The translations under genes were made by a program, and so were the position numbers. Positions 52,795 through 64,000 of a stretch of 64,000 nt of DNA are shown here, piece by piece. Below the pieces are notes generated by a model that made no database searches, had not been told where the DNA came from, and saw only the letters and a program-made list of their open reading frames with translations. Position 1 is the stretch's first letter, and each line of letters begins with the position of its first letter. The stretch comes from Syntrophaceae bacterium UBA2188 (GTDB taxonomy: Bacteria > Desulfobacterota > BSN033 > UBA1163). The DNA lies in assembly GCA_002327985.1 (NCBI GenBank), contig DCVM01000181.1:24528-88527 (forward strand), read 5' to 3'.

Positions 52795-54252
52795 ATGCCT
52801 TTAGGAATCAGAAAGTTATTCCTCATTACCTTTAAAATGAATCTTTGGCACCTGTTATGCATTCATTGTTTGGCATCTATGAAGATAAACTCCTCCTCCC
52901 TTTGCTCCAATCGGAACTGCTATCCCCTTTTTGTTTTCTTTCTGATTATCCTTATTTCCAATCCCTGTTTCAGCCAGATGCCCAGCGAATCCCCTGATCA
53001 AATCTGGAAAGTCGGGGATCACCGTTGGACGGCTGAAGAAGAGGATCGGTTTGGTAAATGGGTCGATGAGACGATTACGGAAGATTTTTTCATGCGTTAT
53101 AAAATCCCCACGGATTGTGCTGATGTCCCTTATGCGGTCAGATGGATATATGCCCGGATCGCACATCTTCCCGCTGCCGCTACGACCAAGGACGGCAAAC
53201 TGATCGGCCACTGGTCTAAGAACTGGAAACATCTTCCAACCCATTCGGAATGGCACGAGGATAAACGATTTCGTGCCGCCCTTCTCTTTCTCATTTCAGA
53301 GACGTGGACAGGAACCCTCCCCCGCGACACATATCCCATTCGCATTTCCCCTGATTCGGTCACGCCAGGAACCCTGCTTGCGATGGATAAATCCCATGTC
53401 GCCATCATCGGCCACGTCTGCTTCAACGGAAGCCAGTCCCATCCCATTCAGACCTGGGAATCAATGCTTCCGGTGAAGATTCGAAAACTGATTTTAAGGG
53501 AATTTTTTTCTCCCAAACCGGAATCTACACACCCTTTAGGTCTGGTGAAATTCCGATGGCCGATTTTTGAAAAGGGGGAATGGAAGTATCTTGCTTCCAA
53601 AGAACACCCCTTCTATTCTGAAGAGCAATACCACCCAACTTTTTATAAGAGGTATGCAGATTTTGTTGCGGCAGTAGCCAAAAGGATCGATCCAACAGAA
53701 TATGAACCCATGGAGAAGGTGGCAAAGGTGATTGAAACAACGACCCGCTTTCTTAAAGATCGAGTTCCCATTGTTCTGTCAGGACACCAGCAGTGTATCA
53801 GGAGGGGATGCACAGAAGGTTCGGATCTATGGGAAATCTACAATACCCTGAGCCATGACGGAATGATCATCCTCTTGATGGATCATCTTTCGCGTATTAT
53901 TGAATCCAGCTATCTTGACAAAGAAATGATTAAAGAGATCATGGAGTCGATTTCGATCAACATCGCAAAAAATCGTTCGGTCACATTCTATGAGGTCTAT
54001 CAGAACTGTTCCTGGTTTTCCCCTCACCCGAATGACTCGATAGAAGCCCGCTGGGGATTAAAAAAGTGTGAGAGGATCCTTTCAGAAATCCAGACCGCCA
54101 AAGACTGCATTGCTTTTATTGAAAGAATTTATGGGAAAAAAGACCCTAAGTATGCTGACTTCTCGATCCGGCAACAGCAGCAAATCGTCCGGAGACTCCA
54201 TGAGGAGTTGATGAAATCCGAATGTCATCTCGCCGCTACAGTTCATCGGTAG
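52795..54252 (+). CDS. hypothetical secreted protein, possible transglutaminase-like Cys-His fold
   Basis: Hydrophobic N-terminus (the start may be the MKINSS Met at 52879); PTDCADVPYAVRWIYARIAHLPA resembles the transglutaminase-core G-C-x-x-A ... R ... IPAR region, followed by SHVAIIGH. Confidence 0.3.
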   Translation: MPLGIRKLFLITFKMNLWHLLCIHCLASMKINSSSLCSNRNCYPLFVFFLIILISNPCFSQMPSESPDQIWKVGDHRWTAEEEDRFGKWVDETITEDFFMRYKIPTDCADVPYAVRWIYARIAHLPAAATTKDGKLIGHWSKNWKHLPTHSEWHEDKRFRAALLFLISETWTGTLPRDTYPIRISPDSVTPGTLLAMDKSHVAIIGHVCFNGSQSHPIQTWESMLPVKIRKLILREFFSPKPESTHPLGLVKFRWPIFEKGEWKYLASKEHPFYSEEQYHPTFYKRYADFVAAVAKRIDPTEYEPMEKVAKVIETTTRFLKDRVPIVLSGHQQCIRRGCTEGSDLWEIYNTLSHDGMIILLMDHLSRIIESSYLDKEMIKEIMESISINIAKNRSVTFYEVYQNCSWFSPHPNDSIEARWGLKKCERILSEIQTAKDCIAFIERIYGKKDPKYADFSIRQQQQIVRRLHEELMKSECHLAATVHR

Positions 54253-54397: not shown

Positions 54398-55072
54398 TTA
54401 TGGAAAAACCATCTTTTCGAGGGCTTTGACTCGAGCTTCCAAGGCATTCATTTTTTTCTCCAAATCGGCATAAGAGAATTTGATCATCGCACCCAATTCC
54501 TCTTTGACCTCATTCAACCCTCCTTTCACTATTCCATTGAGTGCCTTGACCTCTTCAACCGCTTTTCCAATACGCTCATCCAGTCTTTCTAATCCTGTCC
54601 TCACCCCATCCATATCCGCTTTTATTTCGTCTCTTGAATGGGCAAGTTTGGATAATCCTTCCTCCTTCATCACCAGAAAATTTGAATGCATCTCCTGTTT
54701 TGATTGAATGACGGCTGCACAAGTCTCTTCTTTGATCTTCTGGAGGGATGACTCCAATATTTGGATAGGTTGATAGGAAGAGGACTGTATCTCCTGTTTC
54801 AATTTTTCGATTCCATCCTTAAAATCATCTTGGAGGGGACCGATTTCCTCCTTTGTCTCTCTTCTCAATTTTTCCAACTCCTCTTTGATCTCCCCTATTC
54901 CTCCGAGGATCTGATTTCTATTTTCTTCTTTTAATTGACGAAAGTTCGACTTCATCTCCTGTCTCAATTTCTCTATATCCTCTTTCGAAGCCAATCCCAA
55001 TAATCTCTTATCCAACATTTCTTGGTCCATTGAGTTTTTTACCCCCTTCAGAAAGTAGCCTTTGAATATCAT
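54398..55072 (-). CDS. coiled-coil protein of unknown function
   Basis: 224 aa, repeated heptad-rich EEL/KEE segments (IEKLRQEMKSNFRQLKEE, IKEELEKLRRETKEE, IEKLKQEIQ). Confidence 0.4.
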   Translation of the reverse strand: MIFKGYFLKGVKNSMDQEMLDKRLLGLASKEDIEKLRQEMKSNFRQLKEENRNQILGGIGEIKEELEKLRRETKEEIGPLQDDFKDGIEKLKQEIQSSSYQPIQILESSLQKIKEETCAAVIQSKQEMHSNFLVMKEEGLSKLAHSRDEIKADMDGVRTGLERLDERIGKAVEEVKALNGIVKGGLNEVKEELGAMIKFSYADLEKKMNALEARVKALEKMVFP

Positions 55073-55375
55073 AGACGTTTTTAAATATCAATCTTTTTTT
55101 ATTCCTTTCTAATGCTTTATTTTTATTAGCATTATGGGTTACCTTCGACGATATCCTTAGCGTTCATTTTTCCCTTGACAAAAAAATATTATGTGTTATC
55201 TTTCACAAGACTTAATTTACCATGCTCTCTATCTACTTAAATTCTAAATTAATTTTGCAGATCTATTGGGAATGGGCCATTAGAAAAATTTAATGGGTAA
55301 TTGATTTTCCCTGTATCCAAATAGAAAGGGGGTGAATTTGACTCTCATTTTAAAAATTTTAAGAAAGGAAGGTGA

Positions 55376-58300
55376 ATGACATCTATGAAAATTACCCGAA
55401 GAACATTTTTGAAAGTTTCGGGAGCGACAGCCGCCGGGACAATAATGGGTGGCCTGGGGTTCGATCTGTCTCCGGCTGAAGTTTATGCCCAGGAACTTAG
55501 AATCAAAGGGGCGAAGGAAACAACCTCCATCTGCTGTTACTGTTCGGTGGGCTGCGGGATTATCGTCCATACTGATGCCAAAGGAAAAGTAATCAACGCC
55601 GAGGGAGACCCTGATCATCCTATCAGCGAAGGGGCTCTCTGTGCAAAAGGGGCATCGAGTTACCAGATTGCGGTTAACCCACATCGACTTCAAAAAGTAC
55701 TTTACAGGGCCCCCTACAGCAGCACCTGGAAAGAGGTAAAATGGGAATGGGCCTTAGAGAAAATCGCAGCGAATATTAAGAAGAGTAGAGATGCCAGCTT
55801 CATGGAGAAAAATGCAGCAGGTCAGGTGGTCAACCGAACCAACGGCATTGCGTCCGTGGGAAGTGCGGCCATGGATAATGAGGAATGCTGGCTCTACTCC
55901 AAAATGTTGAGGGCCTTAGGGCTCATTTATGTTGAGCACCAGGCCCGTATCTGACACAGCGCCACGGTAGCGGCTCTGGCAGAGTCGTTCGGACGCGGTG
56001 CAATGACCAATCATTATATCGATTTTAGAAATGCCGATGTAATTTTAAACATGGGCAGTAATGTCGCCGAAAACCACCCTGTCTCCTTTAAATGGATCCA
56101 GGCAGCCAAGGACAAAGGGGCGCTCTTCATTCATGTGGATCCAAGATTTACCCGCACCTCGACAAAAGCCGATATATTCGTAAGGCTTCGTTCAGGAACA
56201 GATATTGCCTTCCTGGGTGGCATGATCAAATATCTCATTGACAACAACATGTATGATGAATTCTACGTCAAGAACTATACCAATGCCTCCTTTATCGTAA
56301 ATCCAAAATATGGCTTCAATGACGGTCTTTTCTCAGGCTACGACTCAACCAAACGGAGTTATGATAAATCAACCTGGGCATTGGAAAAAGATGAGCAGGG
56401 AATTCCGAAAAGGGACATGACCCTCCAAGATCCACGCTGTGTCTTCCAGCTTCTGAAGAATCATTATTCCCGATATGCATTGGATAAAGTTTCTCAGATC
56501 ACTGGAACCCCCACAGCAGATCTTGAAAAAGTCTATAAAGCCTATGGCTCAACCTATGCCCCTGACAAAGCAGGGACTGTATTATATGCCATGGGGTGGA
56601 CGCAGCATACCGTAGGGGTTCAGAACATTCGAACCATGGCTATCATTCAAGATCTTCTCGGTAATATGGGAATTGCCGGGGGTGGAATCAATGCTTTGCG
56701 TGGGGAATCAAATGTTCAGGGTTCAACCGATGCGGGTCTTCTGTACCACATTTGGCCAGCTTATTTACCTACTCCGCGGTCTCCTTGGGCAACTCTTGCG
56801 GATTATAATAAGAACAACACTCCGGTTTCAAAGGATCCTCGAAGTGTCAACTGGTGGAAAAACCGTCCTAAATATGTTGCCAGCTTTTTGAAATCGATGT
56901 TCGGAGAGAAGGCAACCAAAGAGAATGATTTTGGATATGCTTGGATGCCCAAGCTCGAACCAGGCCAGGATGCTTCCTGGTTGAATCTCTTTGACGAAAT
57001 GTATAAGGGGGCCTTCACGGGTTTCTTTGCATGGGGAATGAATCCTGCTTGTTCAAGTGCCCATGCCGGAAAAGTTCGCCAGGCATTGACAAAACTTGAC
57101 TGGATGGTCAATGTCAATGTCTTTGACAGCGAAACAGGTTCTTTCTGGAAGGGCCCTGGCATGAACCCAAAGAAGATCAAGACAGAGGTCTTCCAATTGC
57201 CCTGTGCAGCCTTCTTGGAAAAAGAAGGAAGCATCAGCAATAGTGGCCGATGGATGCAGTGGCGATATAAAGCGGCCAATCCTCCTGGAGTGGCCCTCCC
57301 CGATGGCGATATTATATATGAACTGTTTAAAAAGGTTCGAGCCCTTTATGAGAAGGATAAGGGAACCTTGCCAGAACCGATTTTAAACTTAAAGTGGGAT
57401 TATGAAACCGGTGGCCATTTTGATATCCATAAGGTAGCCAAAGAGATCAATGGCTATGATCTCACCACCGGCAAATTGATGGCCAATTTTGTTGGCTTGA
57501 AGGATGACGGAACCACCTCTTGCGGCAACTGGCTCTATTCTGCCAGTTATACCGAAGCGGGTAACATGGCTGCACGCAGAAAGAAGACCGATCCAACTGG
57601 ACTGGGCCTCTATCCGGAATGGTCATGGTGCTGGCCACTGAATCGAAGGATCATCTATAACCGAGCCTCTGTTGATTTGGATGGCAAACCTCGTGATCCA
57701 AAACGACCACTTCTTAAATGGGATGCCGAGGGAAAGAAATGGATAGGGGATGTGCCTGACAATGCTGTTCCACCTATGGGAACAACTGGAGCCTACCCAT
57801 TTATTATGAAGCCAGACGGAGTGTCTTCACTCTTCGGCCCGGGCTTAAATGATGGACCCTTCCCCGAGCACTATGAGCCTCTGGAATGTCCGATCGAAAA
57901 GAATCTGATGTCCGGTCAGAGGATTAACCCGGCCATCAAAGTCTTCGAAGGAGGGCTTGATGCGTTTGCCACCTGTGATCCGAAGTATCCTTTTGTTTGC
58001 AGTACCTATCGGGTTACGGAACACTGGCAGACAGGAGTTCTCACTCGATGGCTGCCATGGCTCATTGAGGCCGAGCCACAGATGTTTTGTGAGATAAGCA
58101 TTGAGCTTGCCAAATTAAGAGGAATTAAAAACGGTGATAGGGTGATCGTTCAGACCCAACGAGGCAAATTAGAAGCGGTGGCCATTGTCACCTTCCGTTT
58201 AAAACCTTTTAATGTCGCTGGCCAAACGATTCATCAAATAGGAATACCATGGCATTTTGGCTGGCTCCATCCAAAGGATGGTGGAGAAAGTGCAAATTTA

Positions 58301-58420
58301 CTGACACCGACCGTTGGCGATCCCAATACCATGATCCCTGAATCAAAGGCTTTCATGGCCAACGTCAGTAAACTGACTAAACAACCAGCCCAACCAGCCA
58401 AAAAAACAACAAAAAGTTAA
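55376..58420 (+). CDS. fdnG: formate dehydrogenase catalytic subunit, selenocysteine-containing, Tat-exported
   Basis: Tat signal RRTFLKVSGATAAG. The two track ORFs 55376-55954 and 56003-58420 are in the same frame and are joined by TGA 55952-55954. The junction reads EHQARI-U-HSATVAALAESFGRGAMTN, the canonical Sec site of molybdopterin formate dehydrogenases; 1014 aa total. Confidence 0.9.
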
Positions 58421-58434
58421 AGGAGGTGACATAA

Positions 58435-59169
58435 ATGGCAGATAAATCCTTTTTCATAGATACAACAAAATGTACGGCTTGTCGGGGGTGCCAGATTGCC
58501 TGCAAGCAGTGGAATAAAAACCCTGGGACGAAAACCCTGCAGCAAGGAAATCACCAGAATCCCGCTGATCTTTCGGCCTCAACATTTAAATTGGTGAGGT
58601 TTAATGAGGTGGAGGTGCCAGGAGGAGAACCCCAATGGTTTTTCTTTCCTGATCAGTGCAGGCACTGTATGTCTCCTCCCTGTAAAGAAGTGGCGGATGA
58701 AAAAGCCAAAGGAGCGATAATCCACGATGAAAAGACCGGGGCGGTTATCTTTAACCCAAAAGTAAAGATAAAACCGGGGGATTTTAAAGAAGTCCGTGAA
58801 GCCTGTCCCTATGATATCCCAAGAATCTCTGGTGCGGGAATCATGGCAAAATGCACCATGTGTTTTGATCGCATCAATGAAGGGATGCTTCCCGCCTGTG
58901 TGAAGACTTGCCCAACTGGAGCCATGAATTTCGGAGATCGAAAAGAGATCCTGGAGAAGGCCAACAAAAGACTTGAAGAGGTAAAAGGAACCTATAAAGA
59001 CGCGATGTTGGCGAACACCGATGATGTTAGGGTGATTTTCCTTATTGTGGATGATCCCAAAAAGTATCACAAATTTGCAGTAGCAGATAATACGATTGGG
59101 ATCACGAGAAAAATGGCGCTAAAGCGTCTTTTTCAACCTCTTACCAGTTTGCGTCATATGATCGGATAA
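58435..59169 (+). CDS. fdnH: formate dehydrogenase Fe-S subunit (4x[4Fe-4S] ferredoxin-like), without a C-terminal TM anchor
   Basis: CTACRGCQIACKQWN, CRHCMSPPC, CPYDIP, CTMCFDRINEGMLPACVKTCPTGA. Confidence 0.8.
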   Translation: MADKSFFIDTTKCTACRGCQIACKQWNKNPGTKTLQQGNHQNPADLSASTFKLVRFNEVEVPGGEPQWFFFPDQCRHCMSPPCKEVADEKAKGAIIHDEKTGAVIFNPKVKIKPGDFKEVREACPYDIPRISGAGIMAKCTMCFDRINEGMLPACVKTCPTGAMNFGDRKEILEKANKRLEEVKGTYKDAMLANTDDVRVIFLIVDDPKKYHKFAVADNTIGITRKMALKRLFQPLTSLRHMIG

Positions 59170-59171
59170 AA

Positions 59172-59217
59172 CCCCCTCTCATCTCCCTCCTCTTTGATGG
59201 ACGAGGGAAGGTGGGGG
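59172..59217. repeat. GC-rich hairpin repeat element (family copy d1)
   Basis: ccccctctcatctccctcctc-tttgatgga-cgagggaaggtggggg. Confidence 0.4.
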
Positions 59218-59245
59218 TAAAATAGGATCAGGGGGGTGTTTTTTA

Positions 59246-59288
59246 GGGCTTGTTTCGGATGGGAGTCTCGAAACAAGCCCGTTTTTTT
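59246..59288 (+). terminator. rho-independent terminator after fdnGH
   Basis: gggcttgtttcg-gatgggagtct-cgaaacaagccc (12-bp perfect stem) followed by gttttttt. Confidence 0.65.
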
Positions 59289-59313
59289 CCTTTCCATCCC
59301 TCATCAACAAGTA

Positions 59314-59360
59314 TCTCCCTCTCCCTTGATGGGAGAGGGGCGGGTTGAGGGTGGGTAAAA
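59314..59360. repeat. GC-rich hairpin repeat element (family copy d2)
   Basis: atctccctctccc-ttgat-gggagagggg-cgggttgagggtggg; 9-bp stem ccctctccc/gggagaggg. Confidence 0.45.
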
Positions 59361-59382
59361 CTTTAACTCACAGGAGAACTCC

Positions 59383-60234
59383 TTGGAAAAGCTAAAAAGA
59401 AGAATTCAACGGATTAAAAAGAAAAGACCCGGCTATGGAGAGATTTTGGATTTCTACCAGAGGGTCAAAGAGGCACAGGAAAAAATAAAAGTTTCTTTAA
59501 AAATGGGTCCCATAAAACTCAAAAGAGAATGGAAGGAGCTCCTGGCCAAAGAAGGTTTTTCATTGATCCAAAAAGAAGATTTCCCATTGGATAGGGAGGC
59601 CTCCATCAAACTCTTTGAAACCCTCTGCCAGATTGGAAAAAATGCAAATCCCCATATGGCAAAGCAAGTGAGAAAAATTGAAGAGGCTATCAGAAATAAA
59701 AAAATAGACCTGAAGGAAATATTAAAATCGGGAGTCAAGGAACAAAAAATTGTTCAGTTTGCTGACGAATTTAAATTGGATAAAAAAGTGTTCTTATTTT
59801 TAATTCAGAACAGTACAAAGCCTTCTGTGGAGGCCGGAATGGAACAACTCCGTAGTGAACTGGACCCTGAAACCTGGCTGAAGGGCTATTGCCCTGTCTG
59901 CAGCTCCCTCCCACATCTCAGTCTGTTAAGGGAAGAAGTTGGAAGAAGATATATGCTCTGTTCCTTTTGTGGATACTCATGGAGAATGGATCGATTAATT
60001 TGCGCATTTTGCAATAATACAGAGCAACCCTCTCTGCAGTATTTTTGTGGTGAGGGAGAGGAGGCCTATCGTATTGACCTGTGCGATAAATGTCACCAGT
60101 ATATCAAGACCATTGACCTTAGAACCCTTGGAGAATCTGACCCCCTCTTGGAGGATCTCGCCACCTTCCACCTCGATCTGATCGCCTCCGAAAAAGGCTA
60201 TAAAAGACCAGTTCCCAACCCCTGGATGACCTAA
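59383..60234 (+). CDS. fdhE: formate dehydrogenase accessory protein FdhE
   Basis: C-terminal Cys pairs CPVCSS ... CSFCGYSW ... CAFCNN ... CDKCHQY, the FdhE rubredoxin-like architecture; 283 aa. Confidence 0.75.
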   Translation: MEKLKRRIQRIKKKRPGYGEILDFYQRVKEAQEKIKVSLKMGPIKLKREWKELLAKEGFSLIQKEDFPLDREASIKLFETLCQIGKNANPHMAKQVRKIEEAIRNKKIDLKEILKSGVKEQKIVQFADEFKLDKKVFLFLIQNSTKPSVEAGMEQLRSELDPETWLKGYCPVCSSLPHLSLLREEVGRRYMLCSFCGYSWRMDRLICAFCNNTEQPSLQYFCGEGEEAYRIDLCDKCHQYIKTIDLRTLGESDPLLEDLATFHLDLIASEKGYKRPVPNPWMT

Positions 60235-60263
60235 AAATCATTGGTGTTGGGGATTAAGAATCA

Positions 60264-60382
60264 TTCGCCCTTGTTTTCAGATGGCAGATAAGGTATAAAT
60301 ACTTGATAGTGTTCGTAAATGGTGATTGTGGAAAATGTATTTCACTAACACTATTTGGTATCAGTAAACACCGAAGGGCGAA
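60264..60382 (+). promoter_or_regulatory. 5' leader with a long-range inverted repeat that can sequester the RBS of the downstream candidate selenoprotein gene
   Basis: ttcgcccttg (60264-60273) is complementary to cgaagggcgaa (60372-60382), which contains the GAAGGG Shine-Dalgarno placed 7 nt before ATG 60386; about 98 nt of AT-rich sequence lies between. Confidence 0.3.
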
Positions 60383-60385
60383 GAC

Positions 60386-61522
60386 ATGAAAGTAAAAGGT
60401 TTGATACTAGGCATTTTGTCTCTGGGATTTTTCTTGCACGTCTGGGCTTTTCCCTCCCCTGCCCAACAATGGCCAAAGACCCTTACCCTTCTCTATAGCA
60501 ATAATATCAATGGTGAAATTGAGCCCTGTCCCACCTGAGGGGAAAAGAATCGAATTGGCGGTCTGGCCAGGAGAGGAGCATGGGTGAAGGATCTTCATGA
60601 GAGTGAAAAAGGGATACTTATTTTGGATTCAGGTGATCTCCTTTTTAAAAAATATCTTAATCCCCTTTCCGAAAATGAATTAAAGGGAGTGAGGGAGAAG
60701 GCCCATCTGATTATCGAGGGTTTCAATTTAACGGGTTATGATGCCATAGGCATTGGCGACGATGATTTAACCCTGGGAAAAGAATTTCTATTGGAAAATT
60801 TAAAAAAGGCTAATTTCCCATTTCTATCGTCCAATCTCCTTGACGAGGGGTCTGGGAATATTCTTTTTCAATCCTCTTTGATCAAAGAAATCAATGGGTT
60901 TCGAATCGGAATTTTTAGTCTTCTCTCGCCCGACTTATTTACAGGTCCTTCTGATCCCCGTAGGAAGGGATTGATTGTCCGGTCACCGATCGAAACAGCC
61001 CAGGCCATGATCAAAGAATTAAAGCCCAAAACCGATCTGATCATCCTCTTGAGCCATCTTGGCTATGCCAAGGATATCGATCTGGCCCAGACGGTCCAAG
61101 GAATTAATATTATCATCGGGGGCCATAACGGAGTCCATTTCGTCATTCCTCCTGTTATCAAGGATACCCTCATTCTTCAAATGGCTTCTCGAGGGATGTT
61201 CGGAGGAAGGCTTACCCTTATCTTCTATAATAATGAACCCATCTTTTACAATTCAGCAATCAAACTATCCTTGGAAAACAATCTTAACAATTTTAACCAA
61301 CGCTTAAAGGCCAAGGACACAACAGAGGCTGAAAAGGCTCAGTGGCGAAAAGCAAAAGAAGAGACCGAACGAACCCTGAACCAACTTCATGGGAAGAACA
61401 ATTTTATAAATCATATCATCCCATTGCAAGAACAGATGAAAGAGCACCCGGATATTAAAAGGCTTGTCGAAAACTTCAAGGGTCAATTTCCAGGAGCAAA
61501 AACGATCTCTTCTCCACAATAA
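60386..61522 (+). CDS. candidate selenoprotein: secreted 5'-nucleotidase-like (metallophosphoesterase-fold) protein with a CxxU motif and an in-frame TGA at 60536-60538
   Basis: ATG with RBS and signal peptide MKVKGLILGILSLGFFLHVWAFPSPAQQ. Same frame as track ORF 60584-61522. Read-through gives ... LTLLYSNNINGEIEPCPT-U-GEKNRIGGLARRGAWVKDLHESEKGILILDSGDLLF ... GIGDDDL ... LSHLG ... GGHNG. Both sides of the TGA align to one 5'-nucleotidase N-domain (LTILHTNDHHG ... GGxARLA ... LLLDAGD ... GNHEFD ... SHxG ... GGHSH). Confidence 0.5.
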
Positions 61523-61527
61523 TAAAG

Positions 61528-63312
61528 ATGACAAATATTGATCTCATTCTTCTTCATCCCCCTACCCTATATGACTTCAGGAATCGGCCTGGGATCCATG
61601 GCCCGATCAGCGATGTTGTTCCCTCCACCCCGATCTTTGAAATGTATCCCATTGGGTTTGCCAGCCTCTCAGAATATTTAGAGCGGCACGGTCTCAAAGT
61701 CAGGATCATCAATGTGGCCATGAAGATGCTCAAGGATGAGAAATTCGATGTGGAGCGGCTCATCCAGAAAAATAAGCCTATTGCTTACGGGATCGATCTC
61801 CACTGGATGGCCCACGTTCAAGGGGCCTTAGCGCTTGCTGAGATCATTAAGCGGTTTCATCCAGAAATCCCTGTCATCTTGGGTGGGTTTTCAGCGTCCT
61901 ATTACCATGAGGAGATTCTCCGTCAATATCCTTTTATCGATTTTGTAGTGAGAGGAGATTCGACAGAGAAGCCGCTGCTTCAACTTCTTCAGACGATCAA
62001 AAAAGGGGGAGATTTTAAAAATATCCCTAATCTGACCTATCGGAATGAAAAGAATGAAATTCAGGTCAATGCCCTCACCCACGTGCCGGAAAACCTAAAT
62101 GAGATGACGATCGATTACCGTCACATCATGAAGAAGGTGGTGAGGTATGCGGACCCCACAGGTTACCAACCTTTTATGGATTGGTACACCTATCCTGTGA
62201 CAGCTGTCTTCACCTGCCGCGGATGTCTCTATTCCTGTAAGACTTGCGGAGGATCCGCACAGACCTTTCGAACGATGGCGAATCGCAGGAAACCGGCCTA
62301 TCGGGATCCCAAATTATTGGCCCAGGATGTCTTCAACATCTCGGATCACCTCCACGCACCGGTGATGATCATCGGCGATATCTTTCAACCTGGGGAAGAA
62401 TATGGGTACACCTTTCTTCAGGAATTGAAGAAGCGACCGATCACCAACCATATTGCTTTTGAATTTTTTGTTCCTCCTTCCAGGGATCAACTTAAAAGGA
62501 TTGCTCAGTCGATTTCCAACTTCAATATCGAGATTTCCCCCGAATCACACGACGAAGAAGTCCGTAAAGCCTTTGGAAGGCCTTACAACAATCAATCATT
62601 GGAGAGGATGATCGAAGAGGCCATTGATCTCGGCTCGAAGCGGGTCGATCTCTTCTTCATGACCGGTCTCCCGAAGCAAACCTATCAATCCGTCCTGGAT
62701 ACAGTAGAATATTGTCGGACTCTTTTAGAACGATTTCGTTCCTACCCTAAACTCTTCCCCTTCATCTCGCCTCTCGCCCCCTTCTTGGATCCGGGGAGTA
62801 TAGTTTTTGAAGCACCAGAAAAATATGGATACCGCTTACTTTATCGGACCGTGGAGGAACATCGTCAAGCCTTGCTGGCCCCCAGTTGGAAATACATCCT
62901 CAACTACGAAACAGAATGGATGAACCGGGACGAGATCGTCTATAGCACCTATGAAGCGGGAAAGAGGCTCAATCGTTTGAAAGCCGAATTCGGGCTGATC
63001 GATCCGAAGACGGCAGAATCGGTTGAGATCCGTCTTGAAGGGGCTCTAAAGGTGATGAAAGAGATTGACCGAATCATGGTCCTTCCAGACCCAAAGGAGA
63101 GGGAAAAGGCGTTGGAGTCCATTTCAAGTGGCCTTCTCTCCCTCCATCACTACAGCATGTCTACGATTTGCGAGAAAAAAGAACTGGAATGGCCTACTCG
63201 ATTTATTCGAATGAATTTCATCAAGATTCTTAAAACACTCCTGATGAGGAGGAAGCCCAATGTCTCTATCCCTTCGTCAACAGGTGCTCCGCAAAATACC
63301 CAGTGTGGATGA
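61528..63312 (+). CDS. B12-binding domain / radical SAM protein
   Basis: N-terminal B12-binding-like domain; radical SAM cluster motif CLYSCKTC within FTCRGCLYSCKTCGG; 594 aa; 5 nt after the previous gene. Confidence 0.75.
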   Translation: MTNIDLILLHPPTLYDFRNRPGIHGPISDVVPSTPIFEMYPIGFASLSEYLERHGLKVRIINVAMKMLKDEKFDVERLIQKNKPIAYGIDLHWMAHVQGALALAEIIKRFHPEIPVILGGFSASYYHEEILRQYPFIDFVVRGDSTEKPLLQLLQTIKKGGDFKNIPNLTYRNEKNEIQVNALTHVPENLNEMTIDYRHIMKKVVRYADPTGYQPFMDWYTYPVTAVFTCRGCLYSCKTCGGSAQTFRTMANRRKPAYRDPKLLAQDVFNISDHLHAPVMIIGDIFQPGEEYGYTFLQELKKRPITNHIAFEFFVPPSRDQLKRIAQSISNFNIEISPESHDEEVRKAFGRPYNNQSLERMIEEAIDLGSKRVDLFFMTGLPKQTYQSVLDTVEYCRTLLERFRSYPKLFPFISPLAPFLDPGSIVFEAPEKYGYRLLYRTVEEHRQALLAPSWKYILNYETEWMNRDEIVYSTYEAGKRLNRLKAEFGLIDPKTAESVEIRLEGALKVMKEIDRIMVLPDPKEREKALESISSGLLSLHHYSMSTICEKKELEWPTRFIRMNFIKILKTLLMRRKPNVSIPSSTGAPQNTQCG

Positions 63313-64000
63313 AATTCTTTCAAGACCAGAAATCGCTGAACTCTTAAAGGTCCATCCCCGTAACGTTGTGGTCGAGGCCATTCGAAAGGGAATAGGAAGA
63401 CTGCGCCAAGAAATCCTCCAAAAAGAGGAAGGGCCTCAATCAGGGGATGACCTCTTTTCTTTTGAGCACTTGGTTCCCCTTTTCCAGAAAGAGATTGACC
63501 TTCAGATTCAACCTCGACTCCGCCGCGTTATCAATGCAACCGGAGTGATCATTCACACCAACCTGGGAAGAGCCCCGCTCCATCCTTCTGCGATTCAACA
63601 CCTCGTCGAGGTTTCCAAAACTTATTCCAACTTAGAATATGACATTGAATTAGGTGAACGGGGAAACCGATATGCGCATGTGGAAGAGATCCTCTGCCGC
63701 CTATCCGGTGCAGAATCAGCCTTGGTGGTAAACAATAATGCGGGGGCCGTCTTGCTTGTCATCAATACCCTTGCAGAAGGCAAGGAGGTGATCGTCTCAA
63801 GAGGAGAACTGGTCGAGATAGGAGGAGCTTTCCGGATCCCTGATGTGATGAGGCGTAGCGGTGCCTTGCTCAGAGAGGTCGGAACAACCAACCGTACCCA
63901 CCTCAATGATTATCAGAAGGCGATTGGTCCTCAGACCGGCCTATTGCTCAAGGTTCACACCAGTAACTTCAGAGTGATGGGATTTTCCTCAGAAGTCTCT
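63260..64000 (+). CDS. selA: L-seryl-tRNA(Sec) selenium transferase, N-terminal part (continues beyond window)
   Basis: MSLSLRQQVLRKIPSVDEIL ... RRVINATGVIIHTNLGRAPL ... canonical SelA N-domain; overlaps the rSAM 3' end by 53 nt in another frame. Confidence 0.8.
   Translation, partial: MSLSLRQQVLRKIPSVDEILSRPEIAELLKVHPRNVVVEAIRKGIGRLRQEILQKEEGPQSGDDLFSFEHLVPLFQKEIDLQIQPRLRRVINATGVIIHTNLGRAPLHPSAIQHLVEVSKTYSNLEYDIELGERGNRYAHVEEILCRLSGAESALVVNNNAGAVLLVINTLAEGKEVIVSRGELVEIGGAFRIPDVMRRSGALLREVGTTNRTHLNDYQKAIGPQTGLLLKVHTSNFRVMGFSSEVS

Follow-up and report, generated by a model that had tools for sequence, protein, structure and literature searches.

Introduction

A UshA-like selenoprotein of COG0737, corresponding to the curated family NF041198, was reportedly described by Zhang and Gladyshev in 2008, and to our knowledge no UshA-like selenoprotein has an established function. 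The 2008 selenoproteome of the Global Ocean Sampling (GOS) data lists 'COG0737, UshA-like' selenoproteins with a CxU motif (U, selenocysteine), as 76 selenocysteine (Sec) forms and 92 Cys forms (PMC2398784); a 2022 review (PMC9312934) includes UshA-like selenoproteins as well, and both NF041198 (CxU) and NF049981 (CxxU) appear in a 2026 review (PMC13188914). Here we analyse a gene of this kind, interrupted at its 51st codon by an in-frame TGA, in a 64,000-nucleotide stretch of contig DCVM01000181.1 from Syntrophaceae bacterium UBA2188 (assembly GCA_002327985.1), hereafter the window. An earlier note on this DNA, made from the letters alone, had presented the gene as a candidate for an undescribed selenoprotein family. 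This part of the proposal fails, since UshA-like selenoproteins are in the 2008 list and NF041198 is the top match of the protein, a member of a superfamily, that of the UshA-like (seleno)proteins, which had been described before. Very probably, the locus is one gene encoding an exported selenoprotein (with a Sec-type, secretory leader) of this superfamily, from a heme-less CxxU lineage and with a probably redox-linked site that is not that of a phosphoesterase.

Comparison with the described families

The window protein resembles NF041198 in its 5'-nucleotidase-type N-domain, which is secreted and has a degenerate DxH motif, in the placing of a Cys/Sec pair, with Sec (or Cys) second, on the loop that follows strand 1, in the GGLARR that follows the pair, and in the retained LDxGD, SH and GGH motifs. 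However, NF041198 members have CxU (PCGU) and a tetraheme cytochrome c-554-like domain (profile positions ~380-519), whereas the window protein has CxxU and ends at 377. With NF049981 it shares CxxU, the lack of a heme domain and similar N-terminal 90 residues, but its 378 residues, which include a C-terminal helical hairpin, can be aligned only to positions 1-89 of that family. UshA and other 5'-nucleotidases (PDB 1ush, 3ivd; CD73), as well as SoxB, have in common with it the N-terminal metallophosphatase fold, a periplasmic location and the residues of motifs II, IV and V. Unlike these enzymes, the window protein is devoid of DxH, of the catalytic His of GNH(E/D) and of the C-terminal substrate-binding domain, and it has a Cys-x-x-Sec.

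We found no Pfam match for the full-length protein, Metallophos and 5_nucleotid_C (PF02872) included. The best NCBIfam match is NF041198, 'UshA-like (seleno)protein' (E = 8e-70, 235.8 bits, profile positions 12-377 of 519), under the curated cut-off of 275 bits; two more members of the clade that the protein forms with its orthologues also stay below it (244.8 and 257.2 bits), and the true members P0134 and P0165 score 372 and 467 bits. NF049981, 'UshA-like (seleno)protein family 2', is matched by the window protein with 69 bits (profile positions 1-89 of 262) and by two orthologues with 59 and 79 bits, for a cut-off of 140 bits. The match to the SoxB model TIGR04486 (84.6 bits, E = 5e-24) is far below its cut-off of 550 bits, and the nucleotidase families are likewise far below theirs.

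Such scores could also be expected if the clade were made of divergent but true members of NF041198 (or NF049981), kept out by conservative cut-offs, with nothing new at the family level. Indeed, NF041198 is clearly the best model, with 236-257 bits across the clade, near the cut-off, and the N-terminal 90 positions of NF049981 match with the CxxU spacing in common. We nevertheless consider this interpretation rather unlikely: all clade members tested score below both cut-offs, the NF041198 match stops at ~377 of 519 with the cytochrome part and its CxxCH motifs absent, and the NF049981 match covers only 1-89 of 262. Moreover, the motif is not PCGU; it is P-C-P-[TSG]-U, that is CxxU and not CxU, in all of the 95 homologous loci described below. 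From these profile comparisons, the clade appears to be a separate heme-less CxxU lineage, nearest to NF041198 and outside both curated families. Its novelty is limited to the fact that it falls under both cut-offs, is heme-less and is present in the databases only in the form of a truncated hypothetical protein; in other words, it is a new, currently mis-annotated lineage of an already-described kind of selenoprotein. The curated NCBIfam models miss it, which warrants a third model or a lower cut-off.

At the level of the fold, the clade profile retrieved from the PDB first 3ivd (at 4e-28), then 2z1a, UshA, CD73 and SoxB (2wdc). The AlphaFold model of the orthologue P0080 (predicted local distance difference test, pLDDT, 93.6; predicted template modelling score, pTM, 0.89) is a single domain followed by a C-terminal helical hairpin, without the nucleotide-binding domain, and Foldseek with this model gave UshA, c4898 and CD73 (E ~1e-24, template modelling score, TM, ~0.67). 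The helical hairpin is located where relatives have the linker to the nucleotide-binding domain or the cytochrome domain.

Decoding of the in-frame TGA

The frame that opens at the ATG in 60386 remains open past the TGA (60536-60538, in the context EIEPCPT-TGA-GEKNRIGGLARRGAW) and past the annotated GTG at 60584, up to the TAA at 61520-61522. Translation thus bears out the frame drawn in the earlier note, from a signal peptide through the TGA into the open reading frame (ORF) of 312 codons, and the full-length frame is kept in 14 orthologues. The leader, of the n-h-c type, reads MKVKGLILGILSLGFFLHVWAFPSPA up to the predicted cleavage point and QQ after it. Orthologues have an equivalent hydrophobic leader with an x-A-Q end, and the ratio of nonsynonymous to synonymous differences per site (pN/pS) of 0.60 in this segment is plausible for a leader peptide.

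In public records the clade exists as 312-residue hypothetical proteins, for instance PIV20225.1. The gene and its metagenomic orthologues, which number in the hundreds, have entries for a truncated "hypothetical protein" or "5'-nucleotidase" of 312 residues, accompanied by a stray 50-residue ORF. This split is what gene callers yield. Taken at face value, it would mean that the TGA is a real stop and that the locus encodes a 50-residue secreted peptide and a 312-residue cytoplasmic protein starting at the GTG in 60584, or else that it is a pseudogene; the fact that single-sequence folding downstream of the TGA is not distinctive also goes in this direction. The comparison of homologous loci makes this reading extremely improbable. 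The 95 loci that we compared comprise the window, 11 species-representative genomes, 3 contigs encoding apparently full-length database proteins and 80 metagenomic contigs, and their proteins are 46-80% identical to that of the window. The column of the TGA contains TGA in 93 of them and TTA in the two others, never TAA or TAG, a pattern far beyond chance. The mature N-terminal segment that precedes the TGA (codons 29-50) has a pN/pS of 0.20, versus 0.29 in the core domain, and is under strong purifying selection. It is thus coding, against the possibility of a non-coding upstream segment raised in the earlier note. Codons 52-66, the 15 that separate the TGA from the GTG, are conserved as protein, with an invariant GGLARRG-W, and the GTG itself is replaced by GTC, ATA, ATT or GTA in 9 of 14 orthologues. 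Together, the selection upstream, the conservation of codons 52-66 and the lack of conservation of the GTG render the two-gene reading untenable. Furthermore, strand 1 and motif I are upstream of the TGA, and neither half is a complete domain.

As the earlier note had predicted, we found homologues in which the Cys of a C-P-[ST]-C motif is aligned to the TGA. Such a Cys is present in CPSC, CPTC and CETC relatives (P0123, P0167, P0152, P0184, P0200 and P0137), and 38 of 150 superfamily representatives have Cys at both columns of the pair. No Cys orthologue was found among the 95 loci of the clade; the nearest Cys form that we found, P0123 (CPSC), is 48% identical to the orthologue P0080 and lies in a different genomic context.

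An identical copy of the gene is carried by 12 contigs that were assembled independently, and an assembly error is thereby excluded. A global reassignment of TGA (code 4 or 25) was also considered and rejected: of the 24 long ORFs of the window, 9 terminate in TGA, and the genetic code is therefore standard. Two database proteins could have been taken for homologues with neither Sec nor Cys. In P0080 the residue is given as W, but the DNA (L014:588-590) has a TGA that was translated under an alternative genetic code; the L of P0003 was set aside as well, since it corresponds to the TTA of a single sample with ~4x coverage whose nearest relative has TGA. A third entry, P0175 (CPTW), has Trp at this column, presumably from a TGA translated under another code as in P0080. 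Database entries with Trp at the Sec column can thus pass for non-Sec, non-Cys homologues.

Given these comparisons, we read TGA-51 with high confidence as a selenocysteine codon that joins the two halves of one 5'-nucleotidase-type domain, and this claim of the earlier note is supported. Re-annotation of the gene and of its metagenomic orthologues as a single selenoprotein is due.

The hairpin downstream of the TGA

That the locus is a single gene for a 378-residue periplasmic selenoprotein, in which UGA-51 would be read by SelB by means of a downstream hairpin, is well supported by the comparative data. The hairpin is a putative bacterial selenocysteine insertion sequence (SECIS). It begins 16 nt past the TGA, and not 18 as first reported, and is made of TTGGC (60555-60559), GGTCTG (60560-60565) and GCCAG (60566-60570). 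In the mechanism that we propose, SelB would recognise this UUGGC-GGUCUG-GCCAG element and UGA-51 would be decoded as Sec.

Codons 58-61 (GGC GGU CUG GCC, encoding G-G-L-A) form the hairpin, and they are nearly frozen at their synonymous sites. Their mean codon entropy is 0.46 bits, versus 1.57 bits for the 31 other invariant codons of four-fold or higher degeneracy, a value as low being obtained in 0 of 100,000 permutations; over codons 52-66, the synonymous term pS is 0.41, versus 0.67-0.70 elsewhere in the gene. The last base of the loop is the only free variable in the hairpin (CUG, CUA, CUU, CUC), and the base of the stem is U·G in 38 sequences versus C-G in 32. An apparent exchange between C-G and U-A at the stem base (columns 19/36) was not retained, as it pairs in 15 of 71 sequences, not above controls. 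The Cys-form relatives encode GGLAR through other codons (GGA GGG TTG GCC; GGA GGA CTG GCG) and have no hairpin.

In bSECISearch, a bacterial SECIS is expected to have a G-containing apical loop ~16-37 nt after the UGA. The GGUCUG loop begins 21 nt after it. The SECIS of Escherichia coli fdhF (UGA-CACGGCCCAUC-GGUUGC-AGGUCU-GCACC) shares with the window hairpin the GGUCU apical loop, the in-frame codons GGU and CUG within it, and a G/C-rich stem whose C-G pair closes the loop. In the window the loop motif begins at nt 25 and in fdhF at nt 22, within one codon, and it is also found at nt 22 in the orthologue L010, which is one codon shorter. However, the window hairpin differs from that of fdhF in its stem of only 5-6 bp, without a bulged U or an obvious lower helix, and in the position of GGUCU, which occupies loop positions 1-5 instead of 2-6. 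The hairpin does exist, and on its conservation and its likeness to fdhF a role as SECIS, with putative SelB binding, is plausible.

A probable remodelled metal site

The motif changes pointed out in the earlier note (NDxH to NNIN and GNHE to GDDD, with LDSGD, SHLG and GGH kept) are recovered in our profile alignments (Table 1). In motif I, the Asp and the His that are ligands of metal site 1 are both replaced by Asn, invariantly among orthologues, and the protein does not have the full set of dimetal ligands and catalytic His (DxH ... GD ... GNH[ED] ... H ... GxH).

These replacements are not specific to the window. In a survey of 90 domains from the 150 representatives of the superfamily, themselves clustered at 50% identity, the Cys pair and DxH were nearly exclusive of each other: the pair occurs in 52 domains, DxH in 33, both in 2 and neither in 3. 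Within the Cys-pair group, Asp or Glu takes the place of the ligand Asn (UshA N116), and Gln, Lys, Thr, Arg or Asp that of the catalytic His (UshA H117). The residues corresponding to D84, H217 and H252 are for the most part conserved. We interpret these ligand changes as a coordinated remodelling and not a random decay, which would make phosphoesterase chemistry less likely and favour a site-2-like metal centre beside a thiol/selenol pair. The site is probably remodelled, redox-linked and non-phosphatase, and the systematic character of the changes across the superfamily favours the repurposed role that the earlier note had suggested.

Several lines of evidence in relatives concern electron transfer. 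Four CxxCH motifs are present in each of the bona fide NF041198 members P0134, P0165, P0171, P0209 and P0131, with a C-terminal Cytochrome_C554 domain, which in P0134 and P0165 (~520-540 residues, CxC) lies C-terminal to the UshA-like domain; NF041198 members are fusions of a phosphoesterase fold with a tetraheme cytochrome. Between the Cys-form gene of P0137 (CETC) and one or two small genes with the iron-sulfur domain PF04060 (L096:703-1260, L097:370-1569) there is an overlap of 8 nt, which suggests a dedicated iron-sulfur partner. Both the tetraheme fusions and this overlap point to electron transfer. A literature search on nucleotidase/multiheme selenoproteins turned up no paper.

Other architectures were noted in the course of this survey. 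P0131 begins just past the Sec column and is probably a truncated Sec form. P0130, P0140 and P0160 (1188-1207 aa) have a tandem pair of Cys-pair UshA-like domains and four C-terminal CxxCH motifs. In P0152 (780 aa, CPTC), residues 322-415, after the Cys-pair domain, match NF041425, 'OS_HP2 family (seleno)protein', with 47.8 bits (E = 1.4e-12), short of the cut-off of 100 bits; this could be a link between two selenoprotein-type modules.

In the model that we favour for the superfamily, the DxH ligands of metal site 1 would have given way to a Cys-x(1,2)-Cys/Sec pair on the loop that follows strand 1. Having lost the catalytic His and the ligands of site 1, the window enzyme would not be a phosphoesterase. 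A site-2-like centre (D84, D125, H224 and H247) would be kept, and beside it the selenol-thiol pair C48/U51 could perform periplasmic redox or chalcogen/metal-transfer chemistry. The periplasmic location agrees with the Sec-type leader, as it does for the c-type cytochrome fusions. Electrons would be passed to a separate partner, the counterpart of which in NF041198 would be the fused tetraheme cytochrome c.

One may ask whether a genuine selenoprotein of this type could still be a phosphate or sulfate ester hydrolase, similar to UshA or SoxB, in which the (selenenyl)sulfide of the Cys/Sec pair would serve structure or regulation only. In favour of this, the protein keeps the fold and three of the five motifs, and SoxB, a hydrolase with a sulfur substrate, is among the matches (TIGR04486, E = 5e-24; PDB 2wdc). 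But the catalytic His is Asp here and other residues in the remaining Cys-pair members, both site-1 ligands are gone, and there is no substrate-binding C-terminal domain. Moreover, a tetraheme cytochrome such as that fused to the relatives would be superfluous for a plain hydrolase, and the strict retention of Sec in the clade suggests a catalytic role. We thus regard a hydrolase as unlikely. The survey of the superfamily yields instead a testable hypothesis, that of a remodelled single-metal/selenol-thiol redox site in the periplasm, which is based on the near-exclusivity of Cys/Sec and DxH, the loss of the catalytic His and the tetraheme fusions of family members. For its study, the heme-less and strictly Sec-dependent clade offers an easier experimental entry than the cytochrome fusions.

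Several observations weigh against a redox selenoprotein. The protein has no heme motif (no CxxCH) or Fe-S motif, and the redox/metal-site mechanism is derived from ligand patterns and from domain fusions in relatives. Neither selB, selD nor tRNA-Sec was found within the 64-kb window, where no tRNA was detected. In one sample, the Sec column reads TTA (Leu); in its two loci (L012:6133-6135 and L013), with ~4x coverage, the downstream hairpin is intact, and their nearest relative, L063, has TGA. The TTA would stem from an error of sequencing or from a recent mutation that inactivates the gene. The hairpin is short and, taken alone, thermodynamically unremarkable (z = 0.13, single-sequence folding of 60536-60600). 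Single-sequence folding says nothing either way for a hairpin of this length, and the folding of the downstream region proposed in the earlier note thus gave no support, in contrast with the synonymous freezing and the fdhF-like loop. Covariation support was not found, RNAalifold giving only three pairs among 71 unique sequences; covariation is uninformative here because the stem is invariant. Finally, no Rfam family matched the candidate hairpin in a scan of 55000-64000.

Genomic neighbourhood

The features of the locus are collected in Table 1.

Table 1. Coordinates in the window of the selenoprotein gene, its motifs and its neighbours
Feature	Position	Strand	Description and basis
Selenoprotein coding sequence	60386..61522	+	378 residues, Sec = residue 51, TAA stop (translation)
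Shine-Dalgarno-like GAAGGG	60373..60378	+	7 nt before ATG 60386; direct sequence reading
Signal peptide, Sec-type	60386..60463	+	Residues 1-26, predicted cleavage between SPA and QQ; n-h-c layout by inspection
Degenerate motif I, N39-N40-I41-N42	60500..60511	+	In place of N-D-x-H; profile alignment to 3ivd, 2z1a
C48-P49-T50-U51	60527..60538	+	Cys TGT 60527-60529, Sec TGA 60536-60538
Putative bacterial SECIS hairpin	60555..60570	+	Stem UUGGC/GCCAG, loop GGUCUG; synonymous-site freezing, fdhF likeness
GTG, start of the deposited 312-aa annotation	60584..60586	+	Actually internal codon Val67; start not conserved
Motif II, D81-S-G83-D84	60626..60637	+	Bridging Asp kept; profile alignment
G124-D125-D126-D127	60755..60766	+	Replaces G-N-H-E; Asp at the position of the ligand Asn, no catalytic His
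S223-H224-L-G	61052..61063	+	Metal-site-2 His kept; profile alignment
G245-G246-H247	61118..61126	+	Metal-site-2 His kept; profile alignment
C-terminal helical hairpin	61253..61387	+	~Residues 290-334; secondary structure of model; no CxxCH
B12-binding radical S-adenosylmethionine (rSAM) gene, TIGR04190	61528..63312	+	668 bits vs cut-off 500; 5 nt downstream of the selenoprotein gene
selA, L-seryl-tRNA(Sec) selenium transferase	63260..64000	+	Cut by window end; TIGR00474, 341.6 bits vs 267.9
fdnG-type formate dehydrogenase alpha subunit	55376..58420	+	Sec TGA 55952-55954
fdhB	58435-59169	+	Directly upstream block
fdhE	59383-60234	+	Directly upstream block

The selenoprotein gene shares an operon with the rSAM gene and selA. 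The presence of selA downstream, noticed earlier, is confirmed by its TIGR00474 score; its start (ATG 63260) precedes the end of the rSAM gene, the two overlapping by 53 nt. A scan of 60150-63400 for promoters and terminators gave nothing over the shuffled expectation. The order selenoprotein-rSAM-selA is kept in all 12 loci that are long enough to show it, and selA is followed by housekeeping genes and not by selB. Across loci, the rSAM and selA proteins are 72-91% identical (75-91% for rSAM alone), versus 46-79% for the selenoprotein. The search for rSAM homologues gave only orthologues of at least 85% identity, the contigs that carry NF041198 members are too short to reveal their neighbours, and the Cys-form relatives P0123 and P0137 have neither an rSAM nor a selA neighbour; we provisionally treat the linkage as specific to the clade.

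From this linkage one could go further, and see in the clade a third UshA-like selenoprotein family, heme-less and obligately Sec-dependent, that acts in a functional module with the TIGR04190 rSAM protein and SelA. In a first version, a periplasmic selenium/chalcogen-handling step would be coupled to Sec synthesis; in a second, translation through UGA-51 would tie the expression of the downstream selA to the supply of Sec-tRNA, as a feedback. The conserved trio fits lineage-inherited synteny equally well, and we find this extended reading very doubtful.

The upstream side is variable: fdnGH-fdhE adjoin the selenoprotein gene, or MarR/DUF4398/OmpA-type genes lie in between, or a patatin-like gene is found. 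The fdhB/fdhE genes are upstream in most orthologous loci, not in all. In the window, fdnG is split into two ORFs by its Sec codon (HQARI-U-HS), which was correctly recognised in the earlier note but lies 4.6 kb upstream, not 4.4 kb. This Sec codon, together with selA in the operon of the selenoprotein gene, suggests that Sec decoding is active in this genome and speaks for the decoding of TGA-51. The fdnG SECIS gives a sub-threshold match to Rfam SECIS_3 (28.5 vs 63 bits) and adopts on folding a stem-loop whose apical loop has GG at nt 27-28. Further upstream of the fdh genes, a 485-residue ORF (52795-54252, + strand) has no Pfam or NCBIfam match. On a contig labelled Syntrophorhabdus, an ORF for a NiFeSe-hydrogenase large subunit (PF00374; L009:2933-4279) is located ~1.7 kb upstream of the selenoprotein gene.

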